Shown: in pieces, positions 3,672 through 9,218 of the stretch | Position numbering within the stretch: the stretch's first letter is position 1 | Layout: every line of letters starts with the position of its first letter | Source: a virus | Lineage: Duplodnaviria > Heunggongvirae > Uroviricota > Caudoviricetes | DNA: 14,088 bases | Virus record (IMG/VR): IMGVR_UViG_2695420814_000008 | Direction: 5' to 3' (one strand) | Notes under the pieces: generated by a model | The model's database searches: none | What the model was told of the DNA's origin: nothing | The model's input: only the letters and a program-made list of their open reading frames with translations | Program-made: the position numbers and the translations under genes

Positions 3672-3826
3672 TAGACTGGCCCCCTGAATCTCCAGACAAC
3701 CAGTATCACTTAAATAAGTGATAGTCTTAATACTAGTTTTTAGACTAGTCATTGGAGTACAGATGATTGATGTCTTAGGGCCGGAGAAACGCAGACGGCG
3801 TACCACACAGGAAAAGATCGCAATTG
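3672..3826 (+). mobile_element. IS2 5' fragment: left terminal repeat (TAGACTGGCCCCCTGAATCTCCAGACAACC...) plus first 18 codons of orfA, then abruptly joined to an IS21-family end
   Basis: Matches remembered IS2 left end; 3773-3827 equal 5948-6002 of the longer IS2 copy; junction at 3826/3827 (±1, one shared base). Confidence 0.85.
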
Positions 3827-3885
3827 TGTCAACGCCACGATGTTTGACCGTTATTTGCCATTTTCATGCCCGCTAAATACTTTCG

Positions 3886-4686
3886 TTACTGATGCTGTCC
3901 GCTTTCCACCATTTCATCATCACTGATTGGCGTTGTGTTTTTGGTCAGCACTCCAGCTTTACGTTTCTCTTTTAACCGGTAACTCTCTCCTTTGATATTC
4001 AGCGTGGTTGAGTGATGTAGCAGCCGATCCAGGATCGCTGTTGCCAGTACGTGATCTCCGAACATTTCTCCCCAGTCTGCGAACCCTTTGTTTGACGTCA
4101 GTATGATGCTCGCTTTTTCATATCGACGGTTCAGTAGCCGGAAGAACAGACTGGCTTCCTCTCTGTTCATCGGCAGATAGCCTATTTCATCCAGGATCAA
4201 CACCCGGGCATAACTCAGTTGCTGTAGCTGACGCTCCAGCCGGTTTTCCTGTTTCGCTTTCATCAGTGTCGCGATCAGTCTGTCCAGTGGCATAAACAGT
4301 ACCCGATGTCCCGCATCCACCGCTTTCACGCCAAGAGCTATGGCCAGATGAGTTTTTCCGACACCAGGAGGGCCCAGCAGGATCACGTTTTCGCTGCGCT
4401 CCACGAACGCCAGACCAGCCAGTTCCCGGACAACCTTACGGTCGATGCCCGGCTGGAAGGTAAAGTCGAACTGCTCCAGCGTTTTGACCCACGGCAGACG
4501 AGCCTGCTTCAGCCTGGACTCCATACCGCGCTGATGCCTGCCGTTCCATTCCTGCTGTAGCGCCATGCACAGGAACTCCCGGTAGTTCAGCTCTTTTTTA
4601 GCTGCCTGTTCCAGCAGGCTTTCAACGTGATAACTCAGATGCTCCATTTTCAGGCGACTCAGCAGGACTTCCAGTTCATGCATCAC
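3886..4686 (-). CDS. istB: IS21-family helper ATPase IstB (266 aa), apparently intact
   Basis: Protein identical to ORF 7952..8752; Walker [11 protein letters not shown] and Walker B-type LILDEIGY present. Confidence 0.9.
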
Positions 4687-4890
4687 AACAGCTCCTCATA
4701 GGCACTCAGTGGTCGATGTTCCACCTGACTGACCTGCTGCCAGAGCGGGGCGTGATGCTCCGGCACTGTCTGCCAGCCAGACGATGCTGAACAGAGGCGA
4801 TGTGAGGCCACCAGTTTCTCATTACTGTAGATCCGCAACTCGTCATCCAGCGATATTCGTATCGATACCGGCTGACCACACAGCGCTTCG
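4683..4890 (-). pseudogene. istA: IstA transposase C-terminal fragment (last ~63 aa only)
   Basis: ...[68 protein letters not shown] matches the C-terminus of ORF 7161..7955; upstream part replaced by IS600-like sequence. Confidence 0.8.
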
Positions 4891-5946
4891 AGAAAAGGGC
4901 TCGGTACTCCTGGTTCCCGCACGGTGGCTGAACTGGAATCTGAAATTCTGCAACTGCGTAAGGCGTTAAATGAAGCTCGCCTTGAGCGAGATATATTAAA
5001 AAAAGCAACAGCGTATTTTGCACAGGAGTCGCTGAAAAATACGCGTTAATCGAACAATGGCGACAACAATTTCCCATTGAAGCGATGTGTCAGGTATTTG
5101 GTGTATCCAGGAGCGGTTATTACAACTGGGTACAGCATGAACCCTCAGACAGAAAACAAAGTGATGAGCGGCTAAAACTGGAGATTAAGGTGGCACATAT
5201 CCGCACTCGCGAAACATATGGAACCCGGCGGCTCCAGACGGAGCTGGCAGAGAATGGCATCATCGTTGGTCGTGACCGACTGGCACGTCTTCGTAAGGAG
5301 CTAAGGCTACGCTGTAAGCAGAAACGCAAGTTCAGAGCGACTACGAACTCGAACCACAATCTGCCAGTTGCGCCAAATCTGCTGAACCAGACGTTCGCTC
5401 CTACAGCACCAAATCAGGTCTGGGTGGCGGACCTGACGTATGTTGCCACACAGGAGGGATGGTTGTACCTCGCTGGCATCAAAGATGTTTATACGTGCGA
5501 AATTGTCGGCTACGCCATGGGAGAGCGCATGACAAAAGAGCTGACAGGTAAAGCCCTGTTTATGGCGCTCAGGAGCCAGCGCCCACCTGCCGGGCTAATC
5601 CACCACTCTGATCGAGGTTCACAGTACTGCGCATACGATTACCGGGTCATACAGGAGCAGTCTGGTCTGAAAACATCAATGTCGCGTAAAGGTAACTGTT
5701 ACGACAACGCTCCGATGGAAAGCTTCTGGGGAACGCTGAAAAATGAGAGCCTGAGCCACTATCGTTTTAATAACCGGGATGAAGCCATCTCAGTAATACG
5801 GGAATACATTGAGATTTTCTACAATCGTCAGCGTCGTCACTCTCGTCTGGGGAATATCTCCCCGGCAGCCTTCAGGGAAAAATATCATCAGATGGCTGCT
5901 TAAAAAAAGAACAAATGGTAGTGTCCGCTATTGCCAGTACACCTCA
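4891..5946 (+). mobile_element. IS3-family (IS600-like) element lacking roughly its first 200 bp: orfA 3' part (4891..5049), slippery A-run, orfB, right end
   Basis: orfA frame reads ...RKGLGTPGSRTVAELESEILQLRKALNEARLERDILKKATAYFAQESLKNTR*; orfB product has the DDE-integrase core; 3' end identical to 1..79. Confidence 0.8.
5085..5903 (+). CDS. IS3-family orfB DDE transposase domain (probably made as an OrfAB fusion by -1 frameshift at the A-run 4998-5005)
   Basis: 272-aa ORF with ...WVADLTYV..., HSDRGSQY, ...[14 protein letters not shown]... (D, D, E core); orfB frame is open back across the A7G slippery run and is -1 relative to orfA. Confidence 0.85.
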
Positions 5947-5947
5947 G

Positions 5948-7176: not shown

Positions 7177-7187
7177 GGGCAAATCCA

Positions 7188-7955
7188 AAAGTTAACTTTG
7201 CGGTTAATACGCTGGGGTTCTCCCGCAGCTTCCATGTCTTCGCCGCACCAAAACAGGATGCTGAGCATACCTACGAATCACTGGTTCGCGCCTTCCGCTA
7301 CTTCGGTGGTTGTGTGAAAACGGTGCTGGTTGATAACCAGAAGGCTGCGGTGCTGAAGAATAACAACGGGAAAGTCGTGTTCAACTCCGGATTCCTGTTG
7401 CTGGCTGACCACTATAACTTCCTGCCACGGGCATGCCGTCCACGCAGGGCCAGAACAAAAGGTAAGGTTGAGCGGATGGTGAAATACCTCAAGGAGAACT
7501 TCTTCGTCCGGTACCGCAGGTTCGACAGCTTCACTCATGTCAATCAACAACTGGAGCAATGGATAGCCGATGTGGCTGACAAACGGGAGCTTCGCCAGTT
7601 CAAAGAAACGCCGGAACAGCGCTTCGCGCTGGAGCAGGAACATCTGCAGCCGTTACCGGATACAGACTTCGATACCAGTTACTTCGATATCCGCCATGTG
7701 TCCTGGGACAGCTATATCGAGGTTGGTGGTAATCGTTACAGCGTTCCCGAAGCGCTGTGTGGTCAGCCGGTATCGATACGAATATCGCTGGATGACGAGT
7801 TGCGGATCTACAGTAATGAGAAACTGGTGGCCTCACATCGCCTCTGTTCAGCATCGTCTGGCTGGCAGACAGTGCCGGAGCATCACGCCCCGCTCTGGCA
7901 GCAGGTCAGTCAGGTGGAACATCGACCACTGAGTGCCTATGAGGAGCTGTTGTGA
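7188..7955 (+). pseudogene. istA: IstA transposase fragment (C-terminal ~255 aa; N-terminal part absent)
   Basis: The first 9 codons of track ORF 7161..7955 are IS2 sequence; the IstA-homologous frame starts at 7188. Confidence 0.8.
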
Positions 7956-8752
7956 TGCATGAACTGGAAGTCCTGCTGAGTCGCCTGAAAATGGAGCATC
8001 TGAGTTATCACGTTGAAAGCCTGCTGGAACAGGCAGCTAAAAAAGAGCTGAACTACCGGGAGTTCCTGTGCATGGCGCTACAGCAGGAATGGAACGGCAG
8101 GCATCAGCGCGGTATGGAGTCCAGGCTGAAGCAGGCTCGTCTGCCGTGGGTCAAAACGCTGGAGCAGTTCGACTTTACCTTCCAGCCGGGCATCGACCGT
8201 AAGGTTGTCCGGGAACTGGCTGGTCTGGCGTTCGTGGAGCGCAGCGAAAACGTGATCCTGCTGGGCCCTCCTGGTGTCGGAAAAACTCATCTGGCCATAG
8301 CTCTTGGCGTGAAAGCGGTGGATGCGGGACATCGGGTACTGTTTATGCCACTGGACAGACTGATCGCGACACTGATGAAAGCGAAACAGGAAAACCGGCT
8401 GGAGCGTCAGCTACAGCAACTGAGTTATGCCCGGGTGTTGATCCTGGATGAAATAGGCTATCTGCCGATGAACAGAGAGGAAGCCAGTCTGTTCTTCCGG
8501 CTACTGAACCGTCGATATGAAAAAGCGAGCATCATACTGACGTCAAACAAAGGGTTCGCAGACTGGGGAGAAATGTTCGGAGATCACGTACTGGCAACAG
8601 CGATCCTGGATCGGCTGCTACATCACTCAACCACGCTGAATATCAAAGGAGAGAGTTACCGGTTAAAAGAGAAACGTAAAGCTGGAGTGCTGACCAAAAA
8701 CACAACGCCAATCAGTGATGATGAAATGGTGGAAAGCGGACAGCATCAGTAA
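7952..8752 (+). CDS. istB: IS21-family helper ATPase IstB (266 aa)
   Basis: Overlaps istA stop by ATGA-type overlap; Walker [11 protein letters not shown]; identical to the inverted copy at 3886..4686. Confidence 0.9.
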
Positions 8753-8811
8753 CGAAAGTATTTAGCGGGCATGAAAATGGCAAATAACGGTCAAACATCG
8801 TGGCGTTGACA

Positions 8812-9218
8812 ACAGTACAGGACGTCATGCTGGGAGCGGTGGAACGCCGCTTCGGCAACGATCTTCCGTCGTCTCCAGTGGAGTGGCTGACGGATAATGG
8901 TTCATGCTACCGGGCTAATGAAACACGCCAGTTCGCCCGGATGTTGGGACTTGAACCGAAGAACACGGCGGTGCGGAGTCCGGAGAGTAACGGAATAGCA
9001 GAGAGCTTCGTGAAAACGATAAAGCGTGACTACATCAGTATCATGCCCAAACCAGACGGGTTAACGGCAGCAAAGAACCTTGCAGAGGCGTTCGAGCATT
9101 ATAACGAATGGCATCCGCATAGTGCGCTGGGTTATCGCTCGCCACGGGAATATCTGCGGCAGCGGGCTTGTAATGGGTTAAGTGATAACAGATGTCTGGA
9201 AATATAGGGGCAAATCCA
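8812..9218 (+). mobile_element. insD: IS2 3' fragment (last ~407 bp: InsD C-terminal 132 codons plus right terminal repeat), a second copy of 6781-7187
   Basis: Direct identity to 6781-7187 by inspection, including the terminal GGGGCAAATCCA; the track ORF 8800..9207 is this insD fragment with a spurious start. Confidence 0.85.

Follow-up and report, generated by a model that had tools for sequence, protein, structure and literature searches.

An apparent scrambled cluster of IS2, IS21 and IS600 is very probably a scaffold of three contigs misjoined across collapsed repeats

The IMG/VR virus record IMGVR_UViG_2695420814_000008 holds 14,088 nucleotides of DNA (the window, hereafter), in which pieces of the insertion sequences (IS) IS2, IS21 and IS600 appear to be nested and scrambled between positions 3,672 and 9,218. 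We report that this apparent cluster is not a real feature. The window is very probably a scaffold of three contigs (a, 1-4890; b, 4892-7187; c, 7189-14088) that were misjoined across collapsed IS2, IS21 and IS600 repeats. Apart from two N characters it is identical to a deposited record, the Ns lie exactly at the anomalous junctions, its three blocks map to three separate loci, and the anomalous junctions are absent elsewhere. Nothing in the arrangement is biologically new, and the three underlying loci are ordinary for Shigella sonnei. The real biology that remains is IS21 inside IS2 at two of these loci, and IS600 abutting a 5'-truncated IS2 at the third.

Results

The window spans the whole of record CXFC01000151.1 (assembly GCA_001253355.1; 14,088 bp, range 1-14,088). 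Direct comparison of the two revealed only two differing positions, 4891 and 7188; at each, an N of the record appears as A in the window, and both anomalous IS junctions coincide with these Ns. A sequence-only reading of the window had described all of its junctions as read directly. This is right for five of the seven, but the junctions at 4890/4891 and 7187/7188 are gap characters in the deposited record, and continuous sequence does not cross them.

To map the IS pieces, the window was aligned by BLASTN against intact IS2 (1331 bp), IS21 (2131 bp) and IS600 (1264 bp) as annotated in RefSeq records; the wider layout draws on a six-frame list of open reading frames (ORFs), a repeat search and a tRNA scan (Table 1). 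Numbers in brackets after an element name refer to positions in these reference copies. All pieces are 98.8-99.8% identical to the full-length annotated elements, of which IS2 and IS600 belong to the IS3 family and IS21 to the IS21 family, a similarity far beyond chance. For the window as supplied, the piece order, orientation and breakpoints given by the sequence-only reading hold to within a few bases. That reading had also seen two parts of IS2 twice. The repeat search recovered the first as a 68-bp stretch (3760-3827 = 5945-6012) and the second, described as the last ~407 bp of IS2, as a duplicated tail of 408 bp. The start of the long IS2 piece needs correction, from about IS2 position 104 to about 89-91. 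The inverted IS21 arms measure 1068 nt in the window.

Five of the seven junctions fall at element termini and are of the type made by a transposase (among them IS600 end/IS2(91), IS21 end/IS2(156) and IS21 end/IS2(925)). No inner element in the window has both of its termini, as a nested insertion with a target-site duplication would. Such an insertion was found only in finished genomes, where IS21 lies within IS2 at the selC locus, flanked by the duplication ACAG.

The blocks on either side of each N belong to loci that are not adjacent in finished genomes of the same species. Contig a derives from a lambdoid-prophage locus: window positions 1-4894 are colinear, at 99.92-99.98% identity, with this locus in ten complete S. 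sonnei chromosomes, obtained by exact-protein look-up of the Q antiterminator. Exact 60-mers across the flank/IS2 junction and across the junction of IS2(156) with the right end of IS21 are present in 10/10 of these loci. In the complete genomes the locus reads IS2(1-156), inverted IS21(2131 to 56), IS2(203-1331), 41 bp and IS600; its istA encodes 390 aa, and IS21 continues to position 56, where IS2(203-1331) takes over.

Contig b consists of IS600 and IS2 sequence only and is bounded entirely by repeat. It matches the mhp locus in Ss046, FORC_011 and other genomes without a single mismatch over 2296 positions (window 4892-7187; four loci, L038, L040, L041 and L043), these loci having been retrieved by exact look-up of the ORF that spans the IS600/IS2 junction; the same look-up also retrieved record CXFC01000151.1. 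Finished mhp loci carry a truncated mhp operon, followed by IS600(1-1264) and then IS2(89-1331). The junction between the IS600 right end and IS2(~91) is thus genuine, but it belongs to the mhp locus. Beyond the IS2 end, the complete genomes continue into unique DNA flanking an aldo-keto reductase gene, not into IS21.

Contig c derives from the selC locus. Window positions 7188-14088 are colinear at ~99.9-99.97% with this locus in ten complete genomes, obtained by exact-protein look-up of the TPR protein; an extra insertion splits one of them (L033). In the finished genomes the IS21 of this locus is full length (1-2131) and has a full-length istA. To its left lies IS2(1-929) in 7/10, IS2(1-273) in 1/10 and unrelated genes in 2/10 (L027 and L029). 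The common arrangement, seen in the seven, is IS2(1-929), IS21(1-2131), IS2(924-1331), in which insertion of IS21 duplicated the four bases ACAG at IS2 925-928.

Within finished chromosomes, record coordinates separate the prophage, mhp and selC loci by distances from hundreds of kilobases to over 2 Mb. The prophage locus of CP104423.1 occupies 2.52-2.54 Mb and the selC locus 4.74-4.76 Mb; in CP044151.1 the corresponding intervals are 0.08-0.10 Mb and 2.81-2.83 Mb. The comparison with related genomes that the sequence-only reading had proposed returned three separate loci, each with a simpler arrangement than the window, and a simpler arrangement is what that reading had named as refuting a real cluster. 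That reading was correct that at least two IS2 copies had contributed, and three loci in fact did so. Its preferred account, a real scrambled cluster that arose from one insertion after another together with recombination or deletion, is not supported, as the scrambling junctions are scaffold gaps and the blocks come from three distant loci. The alternative it had offered, an assembly collapse of repeats, is borne out by the separate, simpler loci of the finished genomes.

We then looked for the junctions themselves. Exact 30-, 40- and 60-mers across 4891 or 7188 occur in 0/55 fetched loci, even though these include the window's own record, because that record has N at both positions. The other five junctions are each represented by exact 30-60-mers in 8-11 of the fetched loci. 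With spanning defined as at least 80% coverage of a 120-bp query across the junction, no spanning record for either 4891 or 7188 was found among 20,395 E. coli (Escherichia coli) or 72,556 plasmid records, and the first join (4891) gave 0 matches in a collection of one genome per species. A search for the whole arrangement in the E. coli and plasmid collections returned unrelated IS clusters only. Likewise, the ORFs that span the two junctions (7161-7955 and 4683-4922) have no exact protein on record; the look-ups are empty because the product in the record contains X from the N.

The species assignment of the comparison genomes follows published lists, in which CP000038.1 (Ss046), HE616528.1 (53G), CP010829.1 (FORC_011) and CP019689 (75/02) are S. 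sonnei; these lists also assign neighbouring "CX.." whole-genome sequencing accessions, from Holt et al. 2012, to S. sonnei (PMC5447701).

The ends of the contigs fit the same picture. The repeats at the joined ends are IS21 and IS600 at the first join and IS2 and IS21 at the second, each present in several copies per genome. As is typical of contigs built from short reads, the scaffold breaks off just inside a repeat at both outer ends, after 79 bp of IS600 at one and ~62 bp of IS1 at the other, and in complete genomes a full IS600 extends further left of the window start. On the right, E. coli matches end at 14027, and at the selC locus the sequence begun by the remaining tail runs on. We take this tail (14027-14088) to be the end of IS1. 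It shortens yicJ to 407 aa instead of 460 aa; IS1 genes adjoin the 407-aa yicJ, and the same IS1 insertion is found in complete S. sonnei genomes.

Table 1. Features of the window, with positions in window coordinates and IS coordinates in brackets.
Feature	Position	Strand	Basis and remarks
IS600(1186-1264), right end	1-79	+	BLASTN; scaffold left end, 79 bp inside repeat
Lambdoid prophage segment	80-3671	-	
IraM/PmrD-like gene	467-802	+	
tRNA-Arg(TCT)	1714-1790	-	tRNA scan
tRNA-Met(CAT)	1891-1966	-	tRNA scan
Q antiterminator	2069-2923		
RusA	2920-3294		
85-aa ORF	3294-3551		
IS2(1-156)	3672-3827	+	BLASTN; genuine left end of the prophage-locus IS2
IS21(2131 to 1063)	3827-4894 (3827-4890)	-	BLASTN; istB 3886-4686 and 3' part of istA; contig a ends at IS21 ~1067
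Scaffold gap	4891		N in record, A in window
IS600(209-1264)	4891-5946 (record bases from 4892 = IS600(210))	+	BLASTN; orfB 5085-5903; contig b start
IS2(89-1331)	5945-7187	+	BLASTN; abuts IS600 right end; contig b ends right on the IS2 terminus
Scaffold gap	7188		N in record, A in window
IS21(507-2131)	7188-8811 (record bases from 7189 = IS21(508))	+	BLASTN; 3' istA, istB 7952-8752; contig c start
IS2(924-1331)	8811-9218	+	BLASTN; right part of the IS21-interrupted selC-locus IS2
selC island remnant and chromosomal flank	9219-14026	-	
TPR protein	9499-10542		
Tyrosine integrase	10954-12138		
tRNA-Sec	12438-12532		tRNA scan
yicJ, truncated at 3' end	12825-14048	+	
First ~62 bp of IS1, inserted in yicJ	14027-14088	+	Scaffold right end, just inside repeat

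IS21 within IS2 is not confined to the two loci that contributed to the window. We found IS21 inside IS2 at IS2 positions 156, 925-928 and ~1063 (the last in locus L047, 9984-11336) in S. sonnei and at 584-587 on an E. coli plasmid (locus L001, IS21 at 2096-4226). The accompanying 4-bp duplications are ACAA (156), ACCA (584-587), ACAG (925-928) and CTTG (~1063, where the duplication is assumed), three of the four fitting AC[AC][AG]. The window resembles such IS2::IS21 composites of E. coli and Shigella in that it holds the outer halves of two real ones, with IS21 at IS2 156 and at 925-928. It differs from them in that the real loci have a full-length istA and IS2 on the far side, whereas the IS21 pieces of the window are cut by gaps.

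IS2, IS21 and IS600 do also form real scrambled clusters. Next to a fimH-like gene, several complete S. sonnei genomes (L047-L054, at ~8670-11605) carry inverted IS2(1331 to 686), IS600(765-1264), inverted IS600(172 to 1), IS21(778-2131) and IS2(1056-1331). The likeness to the window lies in the scrambling of IS2, IS21 and IS600; the difference is that every junction of the fimH-side cluster consists of real bases in independent finished assemblies. The artefact looked plausible because such clusters occur in S. sonnei. In strain 53G (L050) this cluster has an extra IS2 inserted in IS21 at 2002-2007, and IS21(2002-2131) plus IS2(1056-1331) stands twice in tandem.

Several further observations concern the three loci individually. 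In the prophage-locus composite, IS21(1-55) and the adjoining IS2(157-202) are missing from 3/3 mapped finished genomes (53G, CP104423.1 and 75/02), and the IS21/IS2 joint shows a 10-bp overlap (locus L018, reverse complement 13824-13833). The joint has the appearance of an old deletion by microhomology, in which this copy lost the left end of IS21 and with it the ability to move. Both prophage tRNA genes lie on the minus strand just downstream of the 3' end of the Q gene. At the equivalent place in a related E. coli prophage, Arg, Arg and Ile tRNAs are annotated, and given this Ile annotation the CAT tRNA of the window may be a lysidine-modified Ile tRNA.

At the selC locus, the island ahead of the IS2::IS21 composite is reduced to the integrase and the TPR protein (9219-12138). 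The tyrosine integrase is very common, with 25,676 blocks on exact look-up. Some E. coli have a gene for a 1171-aa helicase/PLD-domain protein, or other cargo, after the TPR gene, and in two S. sonnei genomes (L027 and L029) arsenic-resistance genes stand directly beyond IS21. Position 8594, within the selC-side IS21, is G in the window, which is the allele of the prophage copy; it is A in nine of the ten finished genomes and G in one. Strain variation could account for the G, as could a consensus drawn from collapsed reads of IS21, and we do not rely on this base.

Discussion

How would such a scaffold arise? Short-read assembly of what is probably an S. sonnei isolate would have yielded three contigs, of which a and c reach from unique DNA into IS repeats and b is all repeat: a would run from the prophage locus into IS2 and IS21, b would comprise the IS600-IS2 pair of the mhp locus, and c would start in IS21 and IS2 and continue into the selC island. 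A paired-read scaffolder would then have joined a to b and b to c, leaving one N per join; these Ns reached the sequence-only reading as A. Read pairs from other loci can seem to bridge these contigs because the IS2, IS21 and IS600 at the contig ends are shared with those loci. We infer that the joins came from such repeat-derived pairs, and that a pipeline of the Velvet/SSPACE/GapFiller type stood behind the assembly.

Plausible sources of the misleading pairs are present in S. sonnei. In a fourth locus (L047, reversed), inverted IS21 ending at 778 is followed directly by IS600(1-172) in forward orientation. Inverted IS21 of the prophage locus is followed by IS2, and at the selC locus IS2 ending at 929 is followed by IS21 from position 1. 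The fourth locus and the selC locus would supply true IS21-to-IS600 and IS2-to-IS21 pairs, respectively, and could yield both false links.

Misjoins of this kind are known. Such tools leave a single N if they estimate a gap of no length or of negative length, or if a gap was filled without overlap. We found no explicit statement on single-N gaps in the GapFiller paper. Page et al. 2016 describe a pipeline of Velvet, SSPACE and GapFiller whose read-pair joins introduce gaps of N, and note that greedy tools "can lead to false joins"; among their assemblies were 299 of S. sonnei, with a mean of 405 contigs, making it the most fragmented species in the set (PMC5320598). The window shares with SSPACE/GapFiller-type misjoins its contig ends inside multi-copy IS, its N-marked joins and blocks that are non-adjacent in finished genomes. 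It departs from them in that its gaps are single Ns and not runs, and a pipeline of that type is presumed for GCA_001253355.1.

Some points weigh against a misjoined scaffold. The origin of the scaffold links is inferred, and one N alone does not prove that the contigs flanking it are non-adjacent in the isolate. Recombination between IS elements is known to rearrange S. sonnei chromosomes, and another left neighbour of IS21 already occurs in 2/10 selC loci. Finally, the contig ends in IS21 (~1067 and 508) and in IS600 (210) match no truncated copy that we found; the truncated IS21 copies in the fetched loci start at IS21 778 or 156-158, not at ~508 or ~1067.

The strongest competitor is that a real IS-mediated rearrangement, by homologous recombination between two copies of IS600, of IS2 or of IS21, joined the prophage, mhp and selC loci in this isolate, the Ns being small gaps in a correct scaffold. 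Locus order and orientation do vary among S. sonnei strains, the left neighbour of IS21 differs in the two selC loci mentioned above, and the three blocks share one orientation in the scaffold. Nevertheless, we judge this highly improbable. Homologous recombination between IS copies gives intact hybrids, not IS21(~1067) beside IS600(~210). The IS2 of contig b runs to 1331, and were it the selC copy, IS21 would follow at 929. Behind the first N, ~2.4 kb would have to be hidden (the rest of IS21, IS2, the 41 bp and IS600(1-209)), which is too long for fragments of 300-500 bp, the size given for such libraries (PMC5320598). Fusing same-orientation loci more than 2 Mb apart would in addition need a megabase deletion or duplication, and neither junction is present in any other assembly searched.

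A cluster nested at one site is far harder still to sustain, and we give it almost no weight. Here a single IS2 would have received two insertions of IS21; another IS2, which in turn took up IS600 at ~91, would have entered IS21 at ~507, and a microhomology deletion between IS21(1063) and IS600(209) would have followed. Before the comparison with the deposited record, five insertions and one deletion accounted for every piece, and the junctions at IS termini are of the kind that a transposase makes. But the two outer IS2 pieces are not products of a single insertion, since the 5 bp beside their outer ends do not agree (GTCCG and CGGGG), and more than 2 Mb separates the loci from which the two flanks come. 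Of the four bases of apparent microhomology at the first join, one is an N turned into A; the supposed IS2-into-IS21 junction at 7187/7188 is itself an N, and the IS600/IS2 junction is that of the mhp locus. A variant in which IS21 underwent intramolecular replicative inversion was rejected on the absence of a common target duplication, flanks from different loci and the Ns.

That the Ns are masking or data-handling marks in the stored copy of the record, with bases at these positions in the deposited sequence, is scarcely credible: in some collections a few stretches are reportedly masked with N, but the only two Ns in 14,088 bases sit exactly at the two unsupported junctions (~1e-6 for random placement, a rough estimate), and the three blocks map to distant loci independently of the Ns.

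The recurrence of IS21 in IS2 may reflect a target preference, or simply IS crowding. It is possible, though we think it rather unlikely, that IS21 has a target preference for IS2, so that copies of IS2, serving as landing pads, give rise to the IS21/IS2 clusters of Shigella and to the assembly failures that come with them. Less likely than such a preference is that the isolate truly carries a fusion of the prophage, mhp and selC loci behind the Ns.

For the genome itself, the position of the prophage Q and RusA genes next to the selC island in GCA_001253355.1 is no evidence of rearrangement. S. sonnei was already known as a species saturated with IS copies. Showing N as A turned a flagged gap into a seemingly sequenced, non-canonical IS junction, and converting gap characters to bases can, more generally, create false junctions for a reading that works from sequence only. 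Scans of draft assemblies should accordingly keep or mask Ns, and treat repeat-repeat junctions in short-read contigs as unverified.

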